From NCBI RefSeq assembly GCF_054482595.1, contig NZ_CM137008.1: 64,000 bases of DNA; one strand, given 5' to 3'. The notes beneath the pieces were generated by a model. That model saw nothing but the letters and a program-made list of their open reading frames with translations, searched no databases and was not told the origin of the DNA. A program made the position numbers and the translations under genes. Each line of letters begins with the position of its first letter. The stretch's first letter is position 1. Below, piece after piece: positions 354 through 58,408 of this stretch.

Positions 354-1250
354 TTATTCCTTGTCTAAAACCTGACGAATAAAGCCGCCGTGTTGATCCA
401 GGCGTTTTTTAGCTTCTGCGGCATCGAGATTTTTCAGTACCATCACAATGGCCGTTTTACAGTTGCGCTCGCAGGCAATTAACGCCGCTTCCGCTTGTTC
501 GGCATTACATCCGGTGGCGTTTTTAACAATATTGACCTGGCGCACATGCAGTTTTTCGTTGGTGGCGACCACATCGACCATCAGGTTGCCGAACACTTTG
601 CCAGATTTAATCATCAGCCCGGTGGAGAGCATATTGAGCACCAGTTTCTGCGCTGTACCTGCTTTCATCCGCGAAGAACCGGTAACCACTTCGGCACCTA
701 CAATCGGTGTAATGGCAAACTCTGCGGTGGTTGAAACGGCGCTCCCCGGATTACAGGAAATTCCCACTGTGCGGCAGCCGAGCTGGCGTGCGTATTCCAG
801 TCCGGCAATTACATACGGCGTGCGACCACTGGCCGCAATGCCAACCACCACATCCTGCGCGGTTAAGCCGATGTTTTTCAGGTCGTTAACACCACCTTCC
901 CGGCTATCTTCAGCGCCTTCCACCGCGTGCTGAATGGCATATTCGCCTCCAGCAATCAAACCAACCACCAAACCCGGTTTCACGCCATAGGTGGGCGGAC
1001 ATTCGCTGGCATCCAGAATCCCCAGACGACCGGATGTTCCCGCACCGAGATAAATCAGACGACCGCCGCCGCTGACCTGGGCGTGGATAACATCGATCGC
1101 CGCGGCGATATCCGGCAGTACGCGCTCAACGGCGAGTGGTACAGTTTTATCTTCATCGTTGATAATCCGGCACATTTCCAGCGTTGATACGCGGTCAATT
1201 TCAGCCGAGGCGGCGTTCGAGCCTTCGGTAATCATCTTTTCAAGTTGCAT
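354..1250 (-). CDS. murQ: N-acetylmuramic acid 6-phosphate etherase (SIS domain)
   Basis: 298-aa ORF; sequence and length match MurQ as recalled; divergent from murR. Confidence 0.93.
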
Positions 1251-2399: not shown

Positions 2400-3191
2400 A
2401 TGGGTAAACTCACGGGCAAGACAGCACTGATTACGGGCGCATTGCAGGGAATTGGCGAAGGAATTGCCAGAACTTTTGCGCGTCATGGCGCAAACCTAAT
2501 CTTGCTGGATATCTCCCCTGAGATCGAAAAGCTGGCGGACGAACTGTGTGGTCGTGGTCATCGCTGTACGGCGGTTGTCGCCGATGTGCGTGACCCGGCG
2601 TCGGTAGCCGCAGCTATCAAACGCGCGAAGGAAAAAGAAGGGCGCATTGATATCCTGGTGAATAACGCAGGCGTTTGTCGTCTGGGCAGTTTCCTCGATA
2701 TGAGCGATGACGATCGCGATTTCCATATTGACATCAATATTAAAGGCGTATGGAACGTCACGAAGGCGGTGCTGCCGGAGATGATTGCCCGCAAAGATGG
2801 TCGCATTGTGATGATGTCTTCGGTCACTGGCGATATGGTGGCCGATCCGGGTGAAACGGCGTACGCCTTAACGAAAGCGGCGATTGTTGGCCTGACAAAA
2901 TCGCTGGCGGTGGAGTATGCGCAGTCTGGTATTCGCGTTAACGCCATATGCCCTGGATACGTTCGCACACCAATGGCGGAAAGCATTGCCCGCCAGTCGA
3001 ACCCGGAAGATCCAGAGTCAGTGCTGACTGAAATGGCAAAAGCAATCCCGCTGCGTCGCCTCGCCGATCCGCTGGAAGTCGGCGAACTGGCGGCCTTCCT
3101 CGCATCGGATGAATCCAGCTATTTAACCGGTACACAGAATGTGATTGATGGCGGCAGCACACTGCCGGAGACGGTTAGCGTCGGTATCTGA
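2400..3191 (+). CDS. ucpA: Short-chain dehydrogenase/reductase (oxidoreductase UcpA)
   Basis: 263 aa from ATG at 2400; TGxxxGIG Rossmann motif (TGALQGIGEGIA) and YxxxK-type SDR fold; position between murR and cysP. Confidence 0.9.
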   Translation: MGKLTGKTALITGALQGIGEGIARTFARHGANLILLDISPEIEKLADELCGRGHRCTAVVADVRDPASVAAAIKRAKEKEGRIDILVNNAGVCRLGSFLDMSDDDRDFHIDINIKGVWNVTKAVLPEMIARKDGRIVMMSSVTGDMVADPGETAYALTKAAIVGLTKSLAVEYAQSGIRVNAICPGYVRTPMAESIARQSNPEDPESVLTEMAKAIPLRRLADPLEVGELAAFLASDESSYLTGTQNVIDGGSTLPETVSVGI

Positions 3192-45538: not shown

Positions 45539-45614
45539 TGGGTCAGGATGGCTCATTTGGGCAGGTGTTCACATCAGCATCAGACATGATTGCTCACCTG
45601 CCATGTGACAGACG

Positions 45615-45890
45615 CTATCGCACAGGATGAATAAGATAACTCGCCTTTGTCGGATAAGTGGGCGTGGTTTCTTCTGTGAGGTTTAATGGTGGCGCATCTT
45701 CTCTCATCTTAAACAAAATCGCCTGTGATGGCTGAAATTTTGTAGAGTGAGTTGTCGTCATCGCTGACGTTTTTTCCGTCTCTTTATAGCTCGCCTCACT
45801 ACCACCACCAGAAATAGAAAATGCAAAAACATTGCATGCCATAATAGAGACCAATAAAAATAAGCTAAAAAGCATTAAGTTTACTTTCAT
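45615..45890 (-). CDS. ypdI: Small lipoprotein YpdI
   Basis: 91 aa with lipoprotein signal (LLVSIMAC); matches YpdI. Confidence 0.8.
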   Translation of the reverse strand: MKVNLMLFSLFLLVSIMACNVFAFSISGGGSEASYKETEKTSAMTTTHSTKFQPSQAILFKMREDAPPLNLTEETTPTYPTKASYLIHPVR

Positions 45891-46032
45891 AGAAAGTTAT
45901 CCTGAAAATGGTTCACTGAAAACCTACGACGTTATGGCTGTATTTACATATAATTAATCAGTATTTACATCGATATAATAAATGACATCTCTTTGTGGTA
46001 TATAAGAATAGTTCTCTGTGACAGGAAGCAGA

Positions 46033-46050
46033 TTCCTACAACTGTAAGAT
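46033..46050 (+). promoter_or_regulatory. EvgA box upstream of yfdX
   Basis: TTCCTACA-AC-TGTAAGAT, 17/18 match to the EvgA 18-bp inverted-repeat consensus TTCYTACA-N2-TGTARGAA; a second half-site-like copy at 46073..46090. Confidence 0.6.
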
Positions 46051-46185
46051 TAAAATACTTCTTGCGATAATAACTACAAGTGTAAGATAACCCTTTCAAA
46101 ATGACCGTTGCTCTCTGATTTCTCATTTCATGCTCACCCAATATGATGGCGGCGTTTTCTAAAACTGTTAAAGAATGAGGTAAGT

Positions 46186-46818
46186 ATGAAACGTTTAATT
46201 ATGGCTACGATGGTCACAGCTATTCTGGCATCTTCAACTGTATGGGCTGCTGATAATGCACCGGTAGCGGCACAACAGCAAACTCAGCAAGTTCAGCAAA
46301 CCCAGAAAACGGCAGCAGCAGAGCGTATCTCTGAACAAGGTTTATATGCGATGCGTGACGTGCAGGTAGCGCGCCTGGCTCTGTTTCATGGCGATCCGGA
46401 AAAGGCAAAAGAACTGACCAATGAAGCTTCCGCTTTGTTGTCAGATGACAGTACCGAATGGGCAAAGTTCGCTAAGCCAGGTAAAAAGACCAATCTCAAT
46501 GATGACCAATATATTGTCATTAATGCATCTGTCGGAATTTCTGAGAGTTATGTAGCGACACCCGAAAAAGAAGCCGCGATAAAAATTGCCAATGAAAAAA
46601 TGGCGAAAGGGGATAAAAAGGGCGCAATGGAAGAGCTTCGCCTGGCCGGTGTTGGTGTAATGGAAAACCAATATCTGATGCCGCTTAAACAGACTCGTAA
46701 TGCACTTGCTGATGCGCAGAAACTGCTTGATAAAAAGCAATACTACGAGGCAAACCTGGCGCTTAAAGGTGCGGAAGATGGAATCATCGTCGATAGCGAA
46801 GCACTGTTTGTGAACTAA
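46186..46818 (+). CDS. yfdX: EvgA-regulated periplasmic protein YfdX
   Basis: 210 aa with signal peptide; matches YfdX. Confidence 0.9.
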
Positions 46819-46872
46819 TGCTGACTGGCAGTATATTGAGGTAAAGGATTTAACTCCCTCCAGACGACAATT

Positions 46873-46909
46873 TTTTATGACCACAATACGACAGGTTGTG
46901 GTCATAAAA
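46873..46909. terminator. 14-bp perfect inverted repeat (hairpin) downstream of yfdX
   Basis: ttttatgaccacaa-tacgacagg-ttgtggtcataaaa; could be a terminator or a protein-binding palindrome. Confidence 0.4.
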
Positions 46910-47061
46910 TTATTTGGCGCTCGCTGTTCTATAAACTCGCATTTTATATTCCTCAAAGTAAACCGCAATAATCCCGTGTCATCACAAATCATTTAATATG
47001 TTATATTTTATGGTACGCTTTAAAAAGCGTAATCATACCCTTACTTGTAAATCACCGGCGC

Positions 47062-47079
47062 TTCTTACAGTTGTAAGAA
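47062..47079 (+). promoter_or_regulatory. Perfect EvgA-box palindrome upstream of frc
   Basis: TTCTTACA-GT-TGTAAGAA, 18/18 symmetric match to the EvgA consensus, about 250 bp upstream of the frc start. Confidence 0.55.
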
Positions 47080-47329
47080 TAACATCACAAATGTCGCGAC
47101 TCTCTCTGATTACCACGAACCAATATTTATCATATTCTTCTTTTCGTCCTCACTACTTACCATGCAGAAAGGAATTGGAAGTAGCGATGAAATGATTTTC
47201 AGCACTTGATACAGGAATGTAAAAATATCGAGTGCAGCTACGACGATATTTTGCGGATTATTTATAGAGGCGTTATGCCTTAAATAAACGCTAAATTAAC
47301 ACATATTTAATTAACTAATAGGTATTGCT

Positions 47330-48580
47330 ATGTCAACTCCACTTCAAGGAATTAAAGTTCTCGATTTCACCGGTGTGCAATCTGGCCCATCTTGTACTCA
47401 AATGCTGGCCTGGTTTGGCGCTGACGTTATTAAAATTGAACGTCCCGGCGTTGGTGACGTAACGCGTCACCAGCTGCGAGATATTCCTGATATCGATGCG
47501 CTTTACTTCACCATGCTTAACAGTAACAAACGTTCTATTGAGTTAAATACCAAAACAGCGGAAGGCAAAGAGGTAATGGAAAAGCTGATCCGCGAAGCTG
47601 ATATCTTAGTCGAGAACTTTCATCCAGGGGCCATTGATCACATGGGTTTCACCTGGGAGCATATTCAAGAAATCAATCCACGTCTGATTTTTGGTTCGAT
47701 CAAAGGGTTTGATGAGTGTTCGCCTTATGTGAATGTAAAAGCCTATGAAAACGTTGCTCAGGCAGCGGGTGGCGCGGCATCCACTACGGGTTTTTGGGAC
47801 GGTCCGCCGCTGGTAAGCGCTGCAGCGTTGGGTGACAGCAACACCGGAATGCATTTACTGATCGGTTTACTTGCTGCTTTGCTGCATCGCGAAAAAACGG
47901 GGCGTGGGCAACGAGTCACCATGTCAATGCAGGATGCCGTATTGAACCTTTGCCGCGTGAAATTACGCGACCAGCAGCGTCTCGATAAATTGGGTTATCT
48001 GGAAGAATACCCGCAGTATCCGAATGGCACATTTGGTGATGCAGTTCCCCGCGGAGGTAATGCGGGTGGTGGCGGTCAGCCTGGCTGGATCCTGAAATGT
48101 AAAGGTTGGGAAACCGATCCTAACGCCTATATTTATTTCACTATTCAGGAGCAAAACTGGGAAAACACCTGCAAAGCCATCGGCAAACCAGATTGGATTA
48201 CCGATCCGGCATACAGTACAGCCCATGCCCGACAGCCACATATTTTCGATATTTTTGCTGAAATCGAAAAATACACTGTCACTATTGATAAACATGAAGC
48301 GGTGGCCTATTTGACTCAATTTGATATTCCTTGTGCACCGGTTTTAAGTATGAAAGAAATTTCACTTGATCCCTCTTTGCGCCAAAGTGGCAGTGTTGTC
48401 GAAGTGGAACAACCGTTGCGTGGAAAATATCTGACAGTTGGTTGTCCAATGAAATTCTCTGCCTTTACGCCAGATATTAAAGCTGCGCCGCTATTAGGTG
48501 AACATACCGCTGCTGTATTGCAGGAGCTGGGTTATAGCGACGATGAAATTGCTGCAATGAAGCAAAACCACGCCATCTGA
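47330..48580 (+). CDS. frc: Formyl-CoA:oxalate CoA-transferase (family III CoA transferase)
   Basis: 416 aa; matches Frc (YfdW). Confidence 0.95.
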
Positions 48581-48633
48581 TATTAACGGGGGCTTCTGGC
48601 TCCCAATTTATAAAAATTTCGAGGTTATTAATC

Positions 48634-50328
48634 ATGTCAGATCAACTTCAAATGACAGATGGTATGCATATCATCGTTGAAGCATTAAAACAGAATAATA
48701 TTGACACTATTTATGGTGTTGTAGGTATTCCTGTGACGGATATGGCGCGCCATGCCCAGGCGGAAGGCATTCGTTATATTGGTTTTCGTCATGAGCAGTC
48801 GGCAGGCTATGCCGCTGCGGCAAGCGGTTTTCTTACCCAAAAACCAGGGATCTGCCTGACAGTGTCTGCGCCAGGATTCCTCAATGGTTTGACCGCATTG
48901 GCCAACGCAACGGTAAATGGTTTTCCGATGATCATGATTAGCGGCTCCAGCGACCGCGCGATCGTCGACCTACAGCAAGGTGATTATGAAGAGCTGGACC
49001 AAATGAATGCGGCAAAACCGTATGCCAAAGCAGCATTTCGCGTTAATCAGCCGCAGGATCTTGGCATTGCATTGGCACGCGCTATCCGGGTCTCAGTATC
49101 GGGTCGCCCTGGCGGAGTTTATCTTGATTTGCCAGCAAATGTCCTGGCCGCGACGATGGAAAAAGACGAAGCGTTAACCACGATTGTAAAAGTTGAAAAT
49201 CCGTCGCCAGCATTATTGCCATGCCCGAAGTCAGTCACTAGCGCAATTTCGCTTTTAGCAAAAGCTGAACGGCCATTAATTATCCTTGGCAAAGGCGCGG
49301 CGTATTCACAAGCTGACGAACAGCTTCGTGAATTTATTGAAAGTGCCCAGATTCCATTCCTGCCAATGTCTATGGCGAAAGGGATCCTCGAAGATACGCA
49401 TCCACTTTCTGCGGCAGCTGCGCGTTCGTTTGCCCTGGCAAATGCTGACGTTGTCATGCTTGTTGGTGCACGACTGAATTGGTTACTGGCACACGGTAAA
49501 AAAGGATGGGCGGCAGATACACAGTTTATTCAACTGGATATTGAACCGCAGGAAATTGACAGCAACCGCCCCATTGCTGTGCCAGTCGTTGGCGATATTG
49601 CATCCAGTATGCAAGGTATGCTGGCAGAACTGAAACAAAACACATTTACGACTCCACTGGTATGGCGCGATATTTTAAATATCCACAAGCAGCAAAATGC
49701 ACAAAAAATGCATGAAAAATTGAGTACAGATACCCAACCATTAAATTACTTTAATGCATTGAGTGCTGTGCGCGATGTATTGCGTGAGAACCAGGATATT
49801 TATTTAGTTAATGAAGGGGCAAATACCCTGGATAATGCACGAAATATTATTGATATGTATAAACCACGTCGTCGTCTGGATTGTGGCACCTGGGGTGTCA
49901 TGGGCATCGGTATGGGCTATGCCATCGGTGCTAGCGTGACTTCTGGTTCTCCGGTTGTCGCCATTGAAGGTGATAGTGCTTTTGGTTTCAGTGGGATGGA
50001 AATTGAAACGATTTGTCGATATAACCTGCCGGTGACAATCGTTATTTTTAATAATGGCGGCATCTACAGAGGAGACGGTGTTGATCTCAGTGGCGCTGGT
50101 GCACCATCACCAACGGATCTGTTGCACCATGCAAGGTATGACAAATTAATGGATGCGTTTCGTGGCGTTGGCTATAACGTCACCACGACAGATGAACTTC
50201 GTCATGCTTTAACCACCGGTATTCAGTCGCGCAAACCGACCATTATTAACGTGGTCATCGACCCTGCAGCAGGAACTGAAAGTGGCCATATTACCAAACT
50301 GAACCCAAAACAAGTCGCTGGTAATTAA
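48634..50328 (+). CDS. oxc: Oxalyl-CoA decarboxylase (ThDP-dependent)
   Basis: 564 aa; ThDP-binding motif GDSAFGFSGMEIETICRYNLP; matches Oxc (YfdU). Confidence 0.95.
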   Translation: MSDQLQMTDGMHIIVEALKQNNIDTIYGVVGIPVTDMARHAQAEGIRYIGFRHEQSAGYAAAASGFLTQKPGICLTVSAPGFLNGLTALANATVNGFPMIMISGSSDRAIVDLQQGDYEELDQMNAAKPYAKAAFRVNQPQDLGIALARAIRVSVSGRPGGVYLDLPANVLAATMEKDEALTTIVKVENPSPALLPCPKSVTSAISLLAKAERPLIILGKGAAYSQADEQLREFIESAQIPFLPMSMAKGILEDTHPLSAAAARSFALANADVVMLVGARLNWLLAHGKKGWAADTQFIQLDIEPQEIDSNRPIAVPVVGDIASSMQGMLAELKQNTFTTPLVWRDILNIHKQQNAQKMHEKLSTDTQPLNYFNALSAVRDVLRENQDIYLVNEGANTLDNARNIIDMYKPRRRLDCGTWGVMGIGMGYAIGASVTSGSPVVAIEGDSAFGFSGMEIETICRYNLPVTIVIFNNGGIYRGDGVDLSGAGAPSPTDLLHHARYDKLMDAFRGVGYNVTTTDELRHALTTGIQSRKPTIINVVIDPAAGTESGHITKLNPKQVAGN

Positions 50329-50397
50329 ATACTGACATCGTCTCCTCTTGCCAACTCATTATGCGATGGTGAGGGGACCCTTATCGGAAATACTATT

Positions 50398-51342
50398 ATG
50401 CTAACATTTTTTATTGGCGATTTATTGCCTATTATCGTAATCATGCTGTTGGGTTATTTTAGCGGCAGACGAGAAACATTTTCAGAAGATCAAGCTCGGG
50501 CATTTAATAAACTGGTATTAAACTACGCGCTTCCTGCGGCTCTATTTGTATCTATTACCCGGGCAAACAGGGAAATGATTTTTGCGGACACTCGTCTGAC
50601 CCTTGTATCACTTGTGGTTATTGTCGGATGTTTCTTTTTCTCCTGGTTCGGTTGCTACAAATTTTTTAAACGTACTCATGCAGAAGCAGCTGTATGTGCA
50701 TTAATTGCAGGTTCACCTACTATTGGATTCCTGGGATTTGCAGTTCTCGATCCTATTTATGGTGATTCCGTATCAACAGGTTTAGTGGTAGCAATTATTT
50801 CTATTATTGTTAACGCAATTACTATTCCTATTGGTCTGTATTTGCTGAATCCTTCCTCAGGAGCGGATGGTAAGAAGAATAGTAATCTGAGCGCATTAAT
50901 TTCTGCGGCAAAGGAGCCTGTAGTATGGGCACCTGTTCTGGCAACGATCCTGGTGCTGGTTGGGGTAAAAATTCCGGCAGCATGGGACCCAACCTTTAAT
51001 CTGATTGCGAAGGCTAACTCAGGGGTAGCGGTATTCGCTGCGGGGTTGACTCTGGCTGCACATAAATTCGAGTTCAGTGCCGAAATTGCTTATAACACCT
51101 TCCTGAAGCTGATTCTGATGCCACTGGCGCTGCTTCTTGTTGGTATGGCATGTCATCTGAACAGCGAACATCTGCAGATGATGGTACTGGCAGGCGCATT
51201 ACCGCCGGCATTCTCCGGAATCATTATTGCCAGCCGGTTTAATGTCTACACCCGCACTGGTACAGCGTCATTGGCTGTGAGCGTACTGGGTTTTGTCGTC
51301 ACGGCTCCCTTGTGGATTTATGTCAGTCGACTGGTTTCATAA
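50398..51342 (+). CDS. yfdV: AEC-family putative transporter
   Basis: 314 aa polytopic membrane protein; matches YfdV. Confidence 0.9.
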
Positions 51343-51370
51343 TTAATCATGTTATTGATTTTACATAAAT

Positions 51371-51401
51371 GCCGAAGTGTCTTTTCACCTTCGGCTTTTT
51401 T
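51371..51401 (+). terminator. Terminator/attenuator-like hairpin between yfdV and yfdE
   Basis: gccgaag-N11-cttcggc followed by tttttt, ending 15 nt upstream of the yfdE start. Confidence 0.45.
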
Positions 51402-51415
51402 CAAGGCATAAGCAA

Positions 51416-52561
51416 ATGACAAATAATGAAAGCAAAGGGCCGTTTGAAGGCTTATTAGTTATCGATATGACACATGTCCTTAATGGACCTTTCGGAACTC
51501 AACTTCTTTGTAATATGGGCGCAAGGGTAATTAAAGTTGAGCCACCAGGTCATGGTGATGATACCCGCACATTTGGTCCCTATGTGGATGGACAGTCACT
51601 CTATTACAGTTTTATTAATCATGGTAAAGAGAGTGTGGTTCTTGATTTAAAGAATGATCACGATAAAAGTATATTTATAAATATGCTTAAACAAGCTGAT
51701 GTATTAGCTGAGAATTTTCGCCCAGGTACAATGGAAAAACTGGGGTTTTCATGGGAAAGGTTACAAGAAATCAACCCGCGCCTCATATATGCTTCATCGT
51801 CAGGTTTCGGACATACCGGTCCGCTAAAAGATGCTCCTGCCTACGATACCATCATTCAGGCAATGAGCGGGATAATGATGGAAACAGGGTACCCTGATGC
51901 TCCGCCAGTGCGTGTTGGTACCTCTCTTGCGGATCTATGCGGCGGTGTTTATTTATTCAGCGGAATAGTGAGTGCACTTTATGGCCGCGAAAAGAGCCAA
52001 AGAGGGGCGCATGTCGATATAGCGATGTTTGATGCCACGCTGAGTTTTCTGGAGCATGGTCTGATGGCATATATTGCGACAGGGAAGTCACCACAACGCC
52101 TGGGAAATCGCCATCCCTACATGGCACCTTTTGATGTTTTCGATACTCAGGATAAGCCGATTACGATTTGTTGTGGTAATGACAAGCTTTTTTCTGCGTT
52201 ATGCCAGGCACTGGAGCTTACGGAACTGGTTAATGATCCCAGATTTAGCAGCAATATTTTACGCGTACAAAACCAGGCTATTCTTAAACAATATATTGAG
52301 CGGACGTTAAAAACGCAGGCAGCTGAAGTTTGGTTAGCCAAAATACATGAAGTCGGTGTGCCCGTCGCGCCGTTATTAAGTGTGGCTGAGGCCATTAATT
52401 TGCCACAAACTCAGGCGAGAAATATGTTGATTGAAGCCGGGGGAATAATGATGCCGGGTAATCCGATAAAAATCAGTGGCTGCGCGGACCCGCATGTTAT
52501 GCCGGGAGCGGCAACGCTCGACCAGCATGGGGAGCAAATTCGCCAGGAGTTCTCATCATAA
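51416..52561 (+). CDS. yfdE: Acetyl-CoA:oxalate CoA-transferase (family III CoA transferase)
   Basis: 381 aa from internal ATG (MTNNESKGPFEGLLVIDMTH...); paralogous to frc. Confidence 0.9.
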   Translation: MTNNESKGPFEGLLVIDMTHVLNGPFGTQLLCNMGARVIKVEPPGHGDDTRTFGPYVDGQSLYYSFINHGKESVVLDLKNDHDKSIFINMLKQADVLAENFRPGTMEKLGFSWERLQEINPRLIYASSSGFGHTGPLKDAPAYDTIIQAMSGIMMETGYPDAPPVRVGTSLADLCGGVYLFSGIVSALYGREKSQRGAHVDIAMFDATLSFLEHGLMAYIATGKSPQRLGNRHPYMAPFDVFDTQDKPITICCGNDKLFSALCQALELTELVNDPRFSSNILRVQNQAILKQYIERTLKTQAAEVWLAKIHEVGVPVAPLLSVAEAINLPQTQARNMLIEAGGIMMPGNPIKISGCADPHVMPGAATLDQHGEQIRQEFSS

Positions 52562-52582
52562 ATGTAAGATGTGCTGGTAAAT

Positions 52583-52610
52583 AGCTCCCACATTTGAACA
52601 TTGTGGGAGC
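52583..52610. terminator. Hairpin between convergent yfdE and evgS
   Basis: agctcccaca-tttgaacat-tgtgggagc. Confidence 0.4.
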
Positions 52611-52616
52611 CGCTAT

Positions 52617-55600
52617 TTAGTCATTTTGCTGACAGAAAACAGCAATCTCCTGGTCCAGCTCTGCAATGTGTTCTTTTACAGAGTTCAGCAACTGAAGAAT
52701 TTCAGGCTTACTGTCATCTGAAACAGGTGTTATTTCTAACTGATGGCTAATATTAATCAACTTTTGCAAATTCAGGATGTTAGCCGCACCGTGGATGCGA
52801 TGAATACATTGATGGAAAGTTCTGTTATCGCCAGCTTCTAGTGCATGAAACGCAGCGGGTAGATCTTTATGCGTTTCATGCTGGAAAGTCATGAGAATCT
52901 CCTGCATCAGTTGTAGATCGTTCGCCGTATTATTTTTCAGGGCTTCGATATCAAGGTGGCGATACTGAGGTGCAATATGCGCAACCTGGTGTAACTGACT
53001 TAAATGTGTTTTCAGTACATCCAGGGTCAACGGTTTGAACAAACATAAGTTCATGCCGCAATTTAACCCTTTTTCACGTTCGTTAGCCTGTGCGTTGGCT
53101 GTAAGCCCCCAGATGGGTAAGGAAGAATTTTGCTCACGGAGTTTGCGAGTCAACTCAAAACCATCCATATTCGGCATATTAACGTCAGTAATAAGCAGAT
53201 CATAATGTTGCATACTGACTTTGTGTAGCGCTTGCACACCATCAGTGGCTTCATCAACATCATATCCTAATAGATTTAGCTGGCGTTTGAGTAATAGCCT
53301 GTTGGTCGGATGATCATCCGCGATTAATATGCTCAACTTTTCAGGTAGTGTGATGGGTTGTTCTGCTTTTGCCTCGACAGTCGCCACTTGTTGGATAATT
53401 TCTACCGGGATTGTGATCGTAAATGTTGTTCCTATGCCTGGATGACTTTCTAATGACAAATCACCCTGCATGTTTTTAATTAATTCTTTGCAGATCATTA
53501 AGCCTAAACCAGAACCTGTTTGCTGACGACCTGCACTTGTTTGGCTATAGCGTTTAAACAGTTGTTGTTGTTCTTCCTGCGATAATCCACTTCCAGAATC
53601 CATAATCGTCATTTTGATTACAGCGTGGTTGTCATCAATGTGAACCAGGGAGGTCGTAATTTTTACTGCCCCCTCGGTGGTAAATTTGAGAGCATTACTC
53701 AGTAAATTTGATAAGACCTGCTTAAACGCCTGAGGGTCGATCTTAACCAGGTAATGTTCAGGAAACGTACTGCTGCAACTTAATGCGATCGATTTGCTTG
53801 CAGCAATCGCACCGAAAGAGTGACAAGTGTTCTGGACTAAAGTAGGGATATCGACCCATTGTGGTTGAAGTTGATAGTTACCCGATTCAATTTTGTCGAC
53901 ATCAAGGATTTCACCAATTAAGCCGAGGAGTGATTGTCCGGTGGCGTAGGCAAGTGAAATCGCCTCCACCCGTTGCTCCTTGCTAAGACCAGAACCCGAC
54001 AGAAGTTCCAGGAAGCCCATAATGGAGCTTATTGGTGTTCTTATTTCGTGACTCATTGTTGCCAGAAACTGACTTTTTGCGACAGTTGCATTGATCGCTT
54101 TATTTCTCTCTACTTCGAGTGCATGAATTAAATCACGCGTCTCGGTAATATCTTGCCAACCACAAATATAAACAGCATGATCGCTGGCTGGCAGATTGCA
54201 TAATGTATGCCAGTGATTAATGCATCTTTTCTCGATGCCATTATCAATTTCAAATACCTGTGTGTATATTGTTCGATTTTCTTTCGTTTCTGCTGTGACT
54301 TCATGCGCATTAGAAAAAACATCTTTAAAGGGTGATTCACTGTTTTCTAATGGCAACATTGCATTTTTGTAGTAATCAGCAGTGAAATAATGTTCAAATG
54401 CACTATTGTGACTAATGACATTACCTTGCCAGTTTACAACATAAGTTGGATTCGGTAAGGAGTCCGAGAGCGCTTTCCGGAATGATATTTGGTTTTCTAA
54501 ATCACCCTGAATGACTTTACGACGACGAACTGAGCGTAACAGGTAGAATCCCCATAAAAGGCTACTGCCAACTAATAAAACGGATAATGTCGTAACAATA
54601 TAAAATTGCTCGCTATAGAGGTCCCATGTGTCAATGGTCACATTGGGCATTTTAATCCATTTTTCGGTCAGGCGCAGAACTTCGCTTGGGGGGATTGCAT
54701 TCAGTGCTTTATTAATAATATCCTTAAGTTCCGGTTCTCCGCGAGGAAAAGCGAACGAAAGCGATGCATTCGGAACGCCGGGAATAAGAAAATGATACAG
54801 TTCATTAGGATAGTAATGGTCGATCATGTAACGCGAATTTAACTGTGTCGCGACCAGAGCATCAAGTTCGCCTTCCTTGACCTTGTGAAATGCAGCGCTG
54901 GCGTTATCGACTTTTATCCACTCTACCTCCGGATACATCTCTTTTAATTGCGAATGAAGCTCATAATAATATGGAATGGCAACTTTCATTCCTTTTTTTA
55001 ATGTTTGTTCACTGTCAGGCGCTTTTTGCATGACAAAAACGTAAGGCGTTGTTATGAAGGCTTCAGCAAATAAAACATTATTTTCTCTATCTTCACTATA
55101 AATAGCACCGGGTAATATATCCCATCCGCCGGGATTCAGCTGTGTTCCAGCATGGATATTGTGTGAAACGGTGATCGGAGAAAAATTTAAACCTGTTTGC
55201 AAAGTAATAATATTAAGAATATCCCCCATAACGCCCCGAACCGAGCCATTTTCATCCGTCATAGAATAGGGAGGGGAGTAAGGATTTTCCAGCACCTTTA
55301 AATCGGGATGCTGCTTAATCCATTGTTTTTCATGTTCAGTGAGTTCTAATGGTTTGTTCAGAAAGGCCAGGTTTCCTGTATCAAGCCAATTTTGTGATAC
55401 TTCATAGCGAACTTCATTTGTCAAAGCATCAACAAATCGATTGAGTACTTCATTAAGAACGACAGATTCTTTTCTGGTCAAGAAAAAATTATATTGACGC
55501 GGTGAGTTATAATATTTCACTACATTTAAGGAGTGAGTGAAATAGCGGGAAATCATACTGCTGGTAATGATGTTACTACCAATAAAGTAATCATTCTGTC

Positions 55601-56210
55601 CGGCTGAGACGGATGCTAATGCCTGATATAAATTTGTAAAAGAGATAATTGTTGCTTTTGGAAATGATTGATGAATTACCTCGTCAGGGGGATAATTTGC
55701 TACTCGAGCAATATTTACTGGTTTTGATGAGGTAAGCGGTCGCATTGAATCGTGAAGGGTGGTGACCAGCGCCGGAAAGGTAATTATCAGTGGTTTGGTT
55801 GCAGCAATGTCATCATTAAGAGGCGGCGAAGCAACTAAATGTGATAACACTATATCGACTTCACCTTCTTCCAGCGCGTCCATTGCTTTTTGATGATCGG
55901 CGTATTCCCGGAGTGTTAATTTGATATTTAACGCTCTTTTTAAAAGATTTAAATAATCAGCATTAATACCACGCACCCGTTGCTGCGAATCGGTATGCAA
56001 CAACGTAGCCGTTTGGGACTTGTGTACTGCAATCACAAGATTTTTTTTGCTCGCTAACCAACGTAATTCCTTGTTGCTCAGACGTAGTGGATCAAGTGTG
56101 ACACGGTTGTTACTACTGATGCCACGATATTCGATGTAATCTTCGTCTGCGAAACTTATGGTCGACCAAAGACCACAACAGAGAAGAAAAATATAGGGTA
56201 AAAACTTCAT
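52617..56210 (-). CDS. evgS: Hybrid sensor histidine kinase EvgS (two periplasmic binding domains, PAS, HK, receiver, HPt)
   Basis: 1197 aa; H-box SHEIRTPISSIMG, receiver ILIADDHPTNRLLL; matches EvgS. Confidence 0.95.
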   Translation of the reverse strand: MKFLPYIFLLCCGLWSTISFADEDYIEYRGISSNNRVTLDPLRLSNKELRWLASKKNLVIAVHKSQTATLLHTDSQQRVRGINADYLNLLKRALNIKLTLREYADHQKAMDALEEGEVDIVLSHLVASPPLNDDIAATKPLIITFPALVTTLHDSMRPLTSSKPVNIARVANYPPDEVIHQSFPKATIISFTNLYQALASVSAGQNDYFIGSNIITSSMISRYFTHSLNVVKYYNSPRQYNFFLTRKESVVLNEVLNRFVDALTNEVRYEVSQNWLDTGNLAFLNKPLELTEHEKQWIKQHPDLKVLENPYSPPYSMTDENGSVRGVMGDILNIITLQTGLNFSPITVSHNIHAGTQLNPGGWDILPGAIYSEDRENNVLFAEAFITTPYVFVMQKAPDSEQTLKKGMKVAIPYYYELHSQLKEMYPEVEWIKVDNASAAFHKVKEGELDALVATQLNSRYMIDHYYPNELYHFLIPGVPNASLSFAFPRGEPELKDIINKALNAIPPSEVLRLTEKWIKMPNVTIDTWDLYSEQFYIVTTLSVLLVGSSLLWGFYLLRSVRRRKVIQGDLENQISFRKALSDSLPNPTYVVNWQGNVISHNSAFEHYFTADYYKNAMLPLENSESPFKDVFSNAHEVTAETKENRTIYTQVFEIDNGIEKRCINHWHTLCNLPASDHAVYICGWQDITETRDLIHALEVERNKAINATVAKSQFLATMSHEIRTPISSIMGFLELLSGSGLSKEQRVEAISLAYATGQSLLGLIGEILDVDKIESGNYQLQPQWVDIPTLVQNTCHSFGAIAASKSIALSCSSTFPEHYLVKIDPQAFKQVLSNLLSNALKFTTEGAVKITTSLVHIDDNHAVIKMTIMDSGSGLSQEEQQQLFKRYSQTSAGRQQTGSGLGLMICKELIKNMQGDLSLESHPGIGTTFTITIPVEIIQQVATVEAKAEQPITLPEKLSILIADDHPTNRLLLKRQLNLLGYDVDEATDGVQALHKVSMQHYDLLITDVNMPNMDGFELTRKLREQNSSLPIWGLTANAQANEREKGLNCGMNLCLFKPLTLDVLKTHLSQLHQVAHIAPQYRHLDIEALKNNTANDLQLMQEILMTFQHETHKDLPAAFHALEAGDNRTFHQCIHRIHGAANILNLQKLINISHQLEITPVSDDSKPEILQLLNSVKEHIAELDQEIAVFCQQND

Positions 56211-56214
56211 GTGG

Positions 56215-56829
56215 TTAGCCGATTTTGTTACGTTGTGCGAATGTGTAAAGATCCATCAGTGATTTACATTCTAATTTTTCCATCAGGCGACTTTTATAAG
56301 TGCTGACAGTTTTGTTGCTGATGAACATTTTTTCAGCAATGTCATTATTATCCTTGCCATCAAGAATATAGCGCATGACACTAATTTCTTGTTTCGATAA
56401 GGAGTCGAGTTTTTGCTGGTCGGACGTTAAACTTCCAACAAACCGGTTGAGAGAGAAGGGGAAATAGCAGTAGCCATTTTTTGCAGCTTCAATAGCCGCA
56501 ATGATATTGTTCATGCCTTCTTTTTTACTCACGAAACCATTAGCGCCAGCATCAGCACAATGTTTCCCGTAAAAATGGTCATTTTTAGCGGAGACGATAA
56601 TAATAATTCCGCTATATTGGCGCTTCCTCAGCGTTTCTAACACCTGGATACCGTTAACTCCGGGGATATCGACATCAATGATGACGATATCAGGCTTAAG
56701 TGTTTCCACCCGCTGAACGGCACTTCCGCCTTCAGTCAACTCTGCTAAGATTTCAATATCGTTTTTGATCAATAAATTACGAATTGCTGCGATAGCAAGA
56801 GGATGGTCATCAATAATTATTGCGTTCAT
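56215..56829 (-). CDS. evgA: Response regulator EvgA (NarL/FixJ family)
   Basis: 204 aa; MNAIIIDDHPLAIAAIRNLL receiver plus LuxR-type HTH. Confidence 0.95.
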   Translation of the reverse strand: MNAIIIDDHPLAIAAIRNLLIKNDIEILAELTEGGSAVQRVETLKPDIVIIDVDIPGVNGIQVLETLRKRQYSGIIIIVSAKNDHFYGKHCADAGANGFVSKKEGMNNIIAAIEAAKNGYCYFPFSLNRFVGSLTSDQQKLDSLSKQEISVMRYILDGKDNNDIAEKMFISNKTVSTYKSRLMEKLECKSLMDLYTFAQRNKIG

Positions 56830-57053
56830 AGATTATTCCCTTTGCAATGAAGCATCTCCCTTCTCCCTGTAGTAATACAGACATAAGGCATCATCTCATT
56901 TTCTCAATAAAAATAAGAAAATTTGAGCTTCCTTTAAGATAATTCGACAAGTATACCATATAAATAGTCGGCATATATGAAATGTCAACAATAAAATCAG
57001 GGATTGTACCGATGATTTATAGTTTCACATTAGCACTATAAGTCTTCTCACTA

Positions 57054-57071
57054 ATCCTACAGGCGTAAGAA
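57054..57071 (+). promoter_or_regulatory. EvgA box in the evgA-emrK divergent intergenic region
   Basis: ATCCTACA-GG-CGTAAGAA, 16/18 match to the EvgA consensus. Confidence 0.55.
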
Positions 57072-57244
57072 TTGTATTGCAAAAGCCACGGTTTAGTCCT
57101 CTGTTGTTTTTTTTGCACCTCATTTAAATTAGGCCTCCAACGTTCCTGGGATAATGTGCAACACATGCACTGTGTTTGATATGAAGAATGAATACTCTTT
57201 TCATTCAATTCATAAATTTCATCTATGCGAAATGAGAGATAAAA

Positions 57245-58408
57245 GTGGAACAGATTAATTCAAATAAAAAACATTCTAACAGAAGAAAATACTTTTCTTT
57301 ATTGGCGGTAGTTTTATTTATTGCGTTTTCAGGTGCCTATGCCTATTGGTCAATGGAATTAGAAGACATGATTAGTACAGATGACGCCTATGTCACGGGG
57401 AATGCAGATCCAATTTCTGCACAAGTCTCAGGTAGTGTCACTGTCGTTAATCATAAAGATACGAACTACGTTCGACAAGGTGACATTTTAGTTTCACTGG
57501 ATAAAACTGATGCCACTATCGCACTCAATAAAGCTAAAAATAATCTGGCAAATATTGTTCGGCAAACGAATAAACTGTACTTACAGGATAAACAATACAG
57601 TGCCGAAGTCGCTTCAGCACGTATTCAGTATCAACAATCTTTAGAAGATTATAACCGTCGTGTGCCTTTAGCGAAGCAGGGGGTTATTTCAAAAGAAACG
57701 CTGGAGCATACCAAAGATACGTTAATAAGTAGCAAAGCGGCATTGAATGCCGCTATCCAGGCTTATAAAGCGAATAAAGCTTTAGTAATGAACACACCAT
57801 TAAACCGTCAGCCACAAGTCGTGGAAGCGGCGGATGCAACCAAAGAAGCCTGGTTGGCGCTTAAACGTACGGATATTAAGAGTCCGGTTACCGGCTATAT
57901 TGCCCAGAGAAGTGTTCAGGTCGGCGAAACAGTGAGCCCCGGACAATCGTTAATGGCTGTCGTACCGGCACGTCAAATGTGGGTTAATGCCAACTTTAAA
58001 GAAACACAACTCACGGATGTACGGATTGGTCAATCGGTCAATATTATCAGCGATCTTTATGGTGAAAATGTTGTGTTTCATGGTCGGGTGACAGGGATCA
58101 ATATGGGAACCGGCAATGCGTTCTCCTTATTACCTGCACAAAATGCGACAGGGAACTGGATCAAAATCGTTCAGCGTGTACCGGTTGAAGTTTCTCTTGA
58201 TCCAAAAGAACTCATGGAACACCCCTTGCGCATTGGTTTATCGATGACTGCAACTATTGATACGAAGGACGAAGACATTGCTGAGATGCCTGATCTGGCT
58301 TCAACCGTGACCTCCATGCCTGCTTATACCAGTAAGGCTTTAGTTATCGATACCAGTCCGATAGAAAAAGAAATTAGCAACATTATTTCGCATAATGGAC
58401 AACTTTAA
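57245..58408 (+). CDS. emrK: Multidrug efflux membrane fusion protein (EmrA paralogue)
   Basis: 387 aa; N-terminal TM anchor then coiled-coil/HlyD fold; matches EmrK. Confidence 0.93.
   Translation: MEQINSNKKHSNRRKYFSLLAVVLFIAFSGAYAYWSMELEDMISTDDAYVTGNADPISAQVSGSVTVVNHKDTNYVRQGDILVSLDKTDATIALNKAKNNLANIVRQTNKLYLQDKQYSAEVASARIQYQQSLEDYNRRVPLAKQGVISKETLEHTKDTLISSKAALNAAIQAYKANKALVMNTPLNRQPQVVEAADATKEAWLALKRTDIKSPVTGYIAQRSVQVGETVSPGQSLMAVVPARQMWVNANFKETQLTDVRIGQSVNIISDLYGENVVFHGRVTGINMGTGNAFSLLPAQNATGNWIKIVQRVPVEVSLDPKELMEHPLRIGLSMTATIDTKDEDIAEMPDLASTVTSMPAYTSKALVIDTSPIEKEISNIISHNGQL

Follow-up and report, generated by a model that had tools for sequence, protein, structure and literature searches.

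The closest characterized homologs of EvgA and EvgS are BvgA and BvgS of Bordetella. BvgA-activated promoters (e.g., fha) combine a NarL/FixJ-type regulator and a hybrid sensor kinase with a primary inverted repeat that lies well upstream of a promoter having a poor −35 element. In Escherichia coli K-12, the EvgA-box promoters (ydeP, safA-ydeO, yegR, emrKY/evgAS, yfdX, and yfdW, i.e., frc) carry intergenic boxes upstream of EvgA-induced genes, and Masuda and Church reportedly found in 2003 that this induction requires neither YdeO nor GadE, the regulators further down the cascade. The locus described here carries boxes with the same consensus and in the same setting, and its frc site is an already listed member of the set.

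A passage in Mullins 2013 (PMC3720670), citing Masuda and Church 2003, describes two EvgA inverted repeats with separate induction of yfdX and yfdWUVE and states, on the same authority, that EvgA binds these repeats; going by that passage, separate EvgA sites for yfdX and frc (yfdW) have been published since 2003 and are already known. Johnson et al. 2014 (PMC4283999) reported EvgA sites in all known direct targets and no new ones, and Roggiani et al. 2017 relied on the yfdX promoter to report EvgA~P directly. Most papers treat yfdXWUVE as a single operon. The literature searched contained nothing usable from EMSA, footprinting, ChIP, SELEX, or DAP-seq with EvgA on the frc fragment and no mapped frc transcription start, so the case for direct binding and for the start position is built on motif, conservation, and expression.

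Results

The window is the whole stretch of DNA that was analyzed (64 kb). A 1.5-kb segment around the yfdX and frc boxes matched 5417 of 5426 complete E. coli genomes, with 100% identity to strain XH990 and ∼97.5% identity to K-12, and the RefSeq annotation under the match is yfdX and frc. The window carries the E. coli emrKY-evgAS-yfdEVoxc-frc-yfdX island in reversed orientation compared to K-12. The strain, which is not K-12, shows no substantial difference at this locus; a small number of polymorphisms occur in the yfdX boxes and within 47098..47133. Genes were assigned from the ORF lists together with the RefSeq annotation of matching genomes (yfdX) or the K-12 annotation (all others, with equal gene order from frc to yfdE), as follows.

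46186..46818, plus strand: yfdX coding sequence (210 amino acids)
46819..47329: yfdX-frc spacer (511 bp)
47330..48580, plus strand: frc coding sequence
48634..50328, plus strand: oxc coding sequence
50398..51342, plus strand: yfdV coding sequence
51377..52561, plus strand: yfdE coding sequence (longest ORF)
52617..56210, minus strand: evgS, sensor kinase
56215..56829, minus strand: evgA, the regulator that reads the boxes

The ORF lists place emrK and then emrY beyond evgA, and Pfam PF10938 was found on YfdX homologs. The G+C content of the yfdX-to-emrK block (45600..57600) was 0.35 to 0.47 compared to a window mean of 0.50, which fits an acquired, H-NS-bound island. Within yfdX, three overlapping 9-bp repeats of the CAGCAA type (46276..46308) encode a Gln-rich stretch, and a 3-bp (one-codon) indel relative to K-12 lies just 3′ of them at ∼46324. 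An ORF of 65 amino acids that spans the frc box (46998..47195) was considered as a gene and rejected; it is uninterrupted in A/B1-type strains, but a stop codon in B2 strains (e.g., CFT073) and in strain 1438 indicates that it is no gene and should stay unannotated.

We searched the window with the consensus TTCYTACA-N2-TGTARGAA (TTCYTACANNTGTARGAA), allowing at most three mismatches and deriving the expectation from shuffled sequences. Four matches were observed compared to 0.51 expected, which leaves chance as no explanation for the boxes; by an arithmetic estimate, ∼6e-5 exact matches are expected per window. All four boxes sit in intergenic regions regulated by EvgA.

46033..46050, no strand: distal yfdX box (box 1), TTCCTACAACTGTAAGAT, 1 mismatch to the consensus
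46071..46088, no strand: proximal yfdX box (box 2), TAACTACAAGTGTAAGAT, 3 mismatches
47062..47079, no strand: frc box, TTCTTACAGTTGTAAGAA, 0 mismatches
57054..57071, no strand: box in the divergent evgA-emrK intergenic region, ATCCTACAGGCGTAAGAA, 2 mismatches

Judged by their sequence, the palindromes are binding-site motifs of EvgA, the acid-response regulator. The original prediction had placed a near-consensus box upstream of yfdX, and this was confirmed by box 1, which ends 136 bases (135 intervening) before the ATG at 46186. The frc box was likewise found inside the 511-bp spacer as predicted, and the ATG of frc (47330) follows 250 nt downstream. It had been called perfectly symmetric over 18 bp; the 8-bp arms are indeed perfect, but the central GT is not self-complementary, so that description was slightly overstated. 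The proximal yfdX box and the evgA-emrK box are additional to those predicted.

The frc box is identical base for base in K-12, where box 1 reads TTCCTACAATTGTAAGAC and the evgA-emrK box occurs at the same site (L001, 3514..3531). When the EvgA-controlled regions of K-12 were scanned with the same tolerance of three mismatches, boxes were recovered upstream of safA, ydeP, yegR, emrK/evgA, frc, and yfdX, with the frc box being the sole perfect one. The six upstream regions described by Masuda and Church in 2003 are said to be this same set. Another perfect 8-2-8 inverted repeat, TACGCTTTAAAAAGCGTA, lies at 47014..47031, upstream of the frc box by 31 bp. Two of its positions are disrupted in B2 strains, and the two diverged lineages described below (Yersinia and L093) lack it; it is therefore probably not constrained.

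Within E. coli, no part of the yfdX-frc spacer is better conserved than the frc box. With 36-nt megablast queries, for which near-exact matches were required, the frc box plus the 18 nt downstream of it was identical in 5157 of 5426 genomes; the adjoining 36 nt were identical in 2433 of these genomes on the upstream side and in 463 on the downstream side (47098..47133). Seven strains spanning E. coli diversity had no variable site in 47061..47098. The variable positions closest to the box in these strains were 47056, 47058, and 47060 upstream and 47099, 47115, 47120, and 47131 downstream, and the downstream polymorphisms avoid the CTCTGATTAC and TATTCT blocks of the promoter region (see below). 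The combination of alleles that the window has at 47098..47133 is rare; the matches listed for it were O157:H7- and O145-type strains.

A search for YfdX homologs led to two further lineages, namely a full yfdX-frc-oxc-yfdV-yfdE-evgS-evgA island in Yersinia alsatica (L090-L092; YfdX 84% identical) and a contig with the order hdeA-hdeD-yfdX-frc (L093; YfdX 68% identical). The Yersinia island looks horizontally transferred because genes for an IS1-type transposase, a resolvase, and a phage integrase border it, which suggests that the whole evgAS-yfd island has moved into Yersinia together with its boxes. Its EvgA and EvgS orthologs have Response_reg plus GerE and hybrid-kinase Pfam domains, respectively. 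The frc box is retained in both lineages, as TTCTTACACGCGTAAGAA in Yersinia (L090) and as TTCTGACAGAGGTAAGAA in L093, and identity to E. coli along the region was distributed as follows.

Just upstream of the frc box: Yersinia 36%, L093 37%
frc box: Yersinia 83%, L093 83%
Box end to −10: Yersinia 80%, L093 54%
Rest of the frc leader: Yersinia 49%, L093 39%
frc ribosome-binding site: Yersinia 88%, L093 72%

Given the low identity upstream and the high identity within the box in both lineages, the box marks the precise onset of conservation, which extends in the direction of frc as far as the −10-like hexamer. The L093 boxes (1123..1140 and 2427..2444 of that contig) have the half-site TTCTGACA in place of TTCYTACA, with perfect arms in the yfdX site (TTCTGACATCTGTCAGAA); this half-site suggests an EvgA ortholog whose specificity has shifted slightly. 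In Moellerella and Providencia (Frc 86% identical), the frc-oxc clusters lacked a box, and they showed neither an ORF of EvgS size nor a yfdX-like ORF next to them. In an Frc search of genome contigs, the matches listed comprised one Escherichia species, followed by Moellerella, Providencia, and distant taxa; E. albertii and E. fergusonii were not among the matches listed, which carries no weight as absence.

Downstream of the frc box, a five-sequence alignment representing three lineages contains the invariant blocks CACA at +7, CTCTGATTAC at +25, and TATTMT at +54 from the box end. These blocks and a custom promoter scan delimit the following predicted elements.

47104..47138, plus strand: predicted frc core promoter
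47104..47113, plus strand: CTCTGATTAC element, +25 from the box end
47104..47111, plus strand: CTCTGATT of the frc promoter, +25 from the box end
47110..47115, plus strand: −35-like TTACCA, a poor match, with a 17-bp spacer to the −10
47133..47138, plus strand: −10-like TATTCT, +54 from the box end
47145..47329, plus strand: predicted frc 5′ leader of ∼185 nt, deduced from the −10 position

We infer the −35 and −10 hexamers from their sequence and position, and they would place the frc start near 47145/47146 with the box centered at −74.5. A start at 47145 would correspond to position ∼2,493,440 on the minus strand of K-12 (NC_000913.3). The promoter scan found no σ70 match of at least 9/12 downstream of the frc box, which fits an activator-dependent promoter. 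By hexamer match alone, TATCAT (47128..47133) would be the best −10 (5/6), but neither Yersinia nor L093 has kept it; TATTCT/TATTAT at +54 is conserved in both and was preferred for this reason. The predicted leader was also considered as a structured element and discarded, as the fold of 47140..47345 had a z score of −2.15 and 8 of 200 shuffles were as good. A scan of 45850..47400 against Rfam (E up to 1) assigned neither the spacer nor the leader to a known RNA family; the sole match was a meaningless microRNA on the minus strand of the hairpin that follows yfdX (27 bits compared to a gathering score of 92).

The same layout was found upstream of yfdX, where the promoter scan returned TTCTCA-16-TATGAT and blocks are conserved across the three lineages.

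46113..46147, plus strand: predicted yfdX core promoter
46113..46122, plus strand: yfdX CTCTGATTTC element, +25 from the box 2 end
46119..46124, plus strand: −35-like TTTCTC, with a 17-bp spacer to the −10
46142..46147, plus strand: −10 TATGAT, +54 from the box 2 end

For yfdX, transcription is predicted to start at ∼46154, with box 2 centered at −74.5 and box 1 at about −112.5. The frc box and yfdX box 2 thus have offsets that are identical to the base (CTCTGATT at +25, −10-like hexamer at +54), and box 2 keeps its position in Yersinia and L093. Since the geometry of box 2 equals that of the frc box, the proximal box 2, and not the distal near-consensus box 1, is the positional counterpart of the frc box. 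Box 1 is missing from the Yersinia island, where an IS remnant lies beside its place.

Boxes 1 and 2 form a 38-bp direct repeat, box 2 being 38 bp downstream of box 1. In E. coli Z22-6 (L084), a 38-bp tandem duplication corresponding to window positions 46036..46073 has produced a third EvgA box upstream of yfdX. With the direct repeat of boxes 1 and 2 present in all strains, the yfdX promoter seemingly gains boxes by tandem duplication. A separate direct repeat, GTATTTACAT, with 21-bp spacing is located upstream of the EvgA boxes in the divergent ypdI-yfdX intergenic region (45940..45979); it may be part of the ypdI promoter or the site of another regulator.

The K-12 promoters share the distance from box to −10. 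A −10-like hexamer lies +53/+54 from the box end in five of the six K-12 EvgA promoters, including those of frc and yfdX, and in the box-anchored set of six this is the sole −10 offset that reaches four or more promoters. All six (L087, L088, and L001) also have CA.AA at +9 to +13 and TC.TATT from +25/+26 to +32, the latter appearing as CTCTGATT in frc and yfdX; the TC.TATT element resembles the EvgA half-site (TCYTA) and is located immediately 5′ of the −35. Downstream of the frc box, the 18-mer that comes closest to a second box (47082..47099) matched only 9 of 16 specified positions.

The original prediction also mentioned a strong hairpin ahead of the frc box.

46873..46909, plus strand: hairpin 54 nt past the yfdX stop codon, with 15 pairs and a 7-nt loop

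This hairpin is real, with an RNA ΔG of −19.6 to −22.1 kcal/mol and z scores of −4.4 to −5.3 compared to shuffled sequences, and 4672 of 5426 genomes carry it unchanged. Single-sequence folds preserved the stem in Yersinia (L090) and L093, and the core stem in L093 has a compensatory change from A-U to G-C as well as a change from U.G to C-G. Strain 118UI has a G46895A substitution that converts a U.G of the hairpin into U-A. The U-tract is weak; it is interrupted in the E. coli tail (TTATTTGG / UUAUUUGG; 5 U of 8) and is not conserved, the Yersinia tail (CUCUCUGC) and L093 having none. Like intrinsic terminators, the element is a stable stem-loop soon after a stop codon, in plus-strand orientation and with a T-rich tail in E. 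coli; unlike strong ones, it has only 4 G-C pairs of 15, and the tail was lost in two diverged islands while the stem was kept by compensatory change. Retention of the stem and loss of the tail fit a strong terminator less well than a partial one or a 3′-end stabilizer, and from these features the hairpin is probably a leaky terminator or a 3′-end stabilizer.

Discussion

Conservation of the box, the two diverged islands, the geometry shared with yfdX and the other EvgA promoters of K-12, the conserved hairpin after yfdX, and published expression data all support the original prediction that frc-oxc-yfdVE has its own EvgA-dependent promoter. Binding of the σ70 holoenzyme to the spacer in genomic SELEX (PMC3946193) and the lack of a box in the Moellerella and Providencia clusters point the same way. 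In the array of an evgS-constitutive mutant, frc had the highest induction of all genes (log2 of 8.37), and values of 6.97, 6.59, 6.16, and 3.57 were given for yfdX, oxc, yfdV, and yfdE, respectively (PMC4283999 and its supplement). Induction of frc above yfdX is hard to obtain from read-through alone, yet it is only suggestive because fold-induction depends on the basal level. All four of these genes that appear in the published table for acid pH (yfdX, frc, yfdV, and oxc) were induced under that condition. On this evidence, it is very probable that frc is transcribed from a separate promoter dependent on EvgA, which probably serves frc, oxc, yfdV, and yfdE (47330..52561, plus strand).

We propose the following explanation. 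A dimer of phosphorylated EvgA, a NarL/FixJ-type response regulator encoded 9 kb from the frc box, would occupy this 18-bp inverted repeat (47062..47079), which would lie ∼74.5 bp ahead of a σ70 promoter that has a poor −35 and depends on an activator. Transcription would begin near 47145 and proceed through a leader of ∼185 nt and frc-oxc-yfdV-yfdE. The yfdX promoter would follow the same design, with box 2 at −74.5, a TATGAT −10, and a second box 38 bp further upstream. The hairpin at 46873..46909, whose efficiency we infer from its stem and tail, would end or stabilize most yfdX transcripts, and some of these would probably run on into frc. We hold this explanation as a whole, with a working EvgA~P site and an activator-dependent promoter at frc, the same arrangement at yfdX, and a leaky hairpin, with considerable confidence. 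The weak U-tract makes some read-through from yfdX to frc likely beside the frc promoter; hence, the earlier statement that frc-oxc-yfdVE is not simply read through from yfdX is supported as regards a separate promoter and needs qualification as regards read-through. Operation of both routes would probably reconcile the usage "yfdXWUVE operon" with the two-promoter model.

A single transcription unit, in which the yfdX promoter alone drives frc-oxc-yfdVE by way of a leaky hairpin and the frc box has no function or is redundant, would agree with the yfdXWUVE operon of many papers, with the interrupted U-tract that is not conserved in L090 or L093, and with the lack of a strong σ70 match downstream of the frc box. 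However, without a function the site would not show the strongest conservation within the spacer across 5426 genomes, nor would the box and its downstream module be expected to persist in two diverged islands whose upstream sequences cannot be aligned. The higher induction of frc than of yfdX and the published model of two sites and two units, as given in the passage of PMC3720670, also argue against this arrangement, which we consider improbable.

We judge it slightly harder still to accept that the main frc promoter is an EvgA-independent, constitutive spacer promoter silenced by H-NS, with EvgA acting mainly to relieve silencing. Such a promoter would account for the genomic SELEX result that the σ70 RNA polymerase holoenzyme binds the yfdX-frc spacer, for which the table also carries an H-NS mark (PMC3946193), and the G+C content of the spacer (35% compared to 50% for the whole window) is compatible with H-NS binding. 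Shimada et al. assigned the spacer the promoter guess TTTATA-18-AATAAT at 46943..46972 (PMC3946193), and our own scan found the same hexamers; however, those in the SELEX table are a best guess within a broad peak. We did not take this site as the EvgA-dependent promoter because it lies upstream of the box (by 90 bp) in a stretch without conservation in L090 or L093, whereas all conserved blocks are downstream of the box with promoter-like spacing. A third alternative is that the frc box serves yfdX, either by looping to the two yfdX boxes 1 kb away or by driving an antisense transcript into yfdX. The palindromic site is orientation-neutral and three boxes occur within 1.05 kb, but the conserved sequence beside the box extends only towards frc, and the minus strand has neither a conserved ORF nor promoter-like geometry, its ORF at 46441..46992 merely overlapping yfdX. 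We know of no precedent for distal looping by EvgA, and this alternative seems scarcely credible.

The promoter proposed for frc resembles BvgA-activated promoters in the type of regulator and kinase, the upstream inverted repeat, and the poor −35; the half-site sequences of the BvgA and EvgA promoters differ. By analogy, further EvgA contacts, secondary and of lower affinity, could lie in the conserved stretch that separates the repeat from the −35. The frc box and yfdX box 2 share a layout base for base (box, CA.AA at +9, CTCTGATT at +25, −10 at +54) that other EvgA promoters have in outline. We tentatively offer, as a possibility we rate below even, that this is a conserved cassette of ∼77 bp with the box as its upstream edge, reflecting either duplication of the yfdX promoter or a need of EvgA for a second contact near the −35. 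Such a contact, of which the literature searched contained no description for EvgA promoters just upstream of the −35, may involve further EvgA dimers, as for BvgA, or the C-terminal domain of the α subunit.

With EvgA driving both the separate frc promoter and read-through from yfdX, frc would receive EvgA input twice. The finding itself adds little to what has been published since 2003 and repeated in later papers. Its modest additions are concrete predictions for frc transcription (a −10 at 47133..47138, initiation near 47145, and a box center of −74.5), a second yfdX box, a possible promoter cassette shared by the two genes, and a copy of the island in Yersinia that appears to be mobile.
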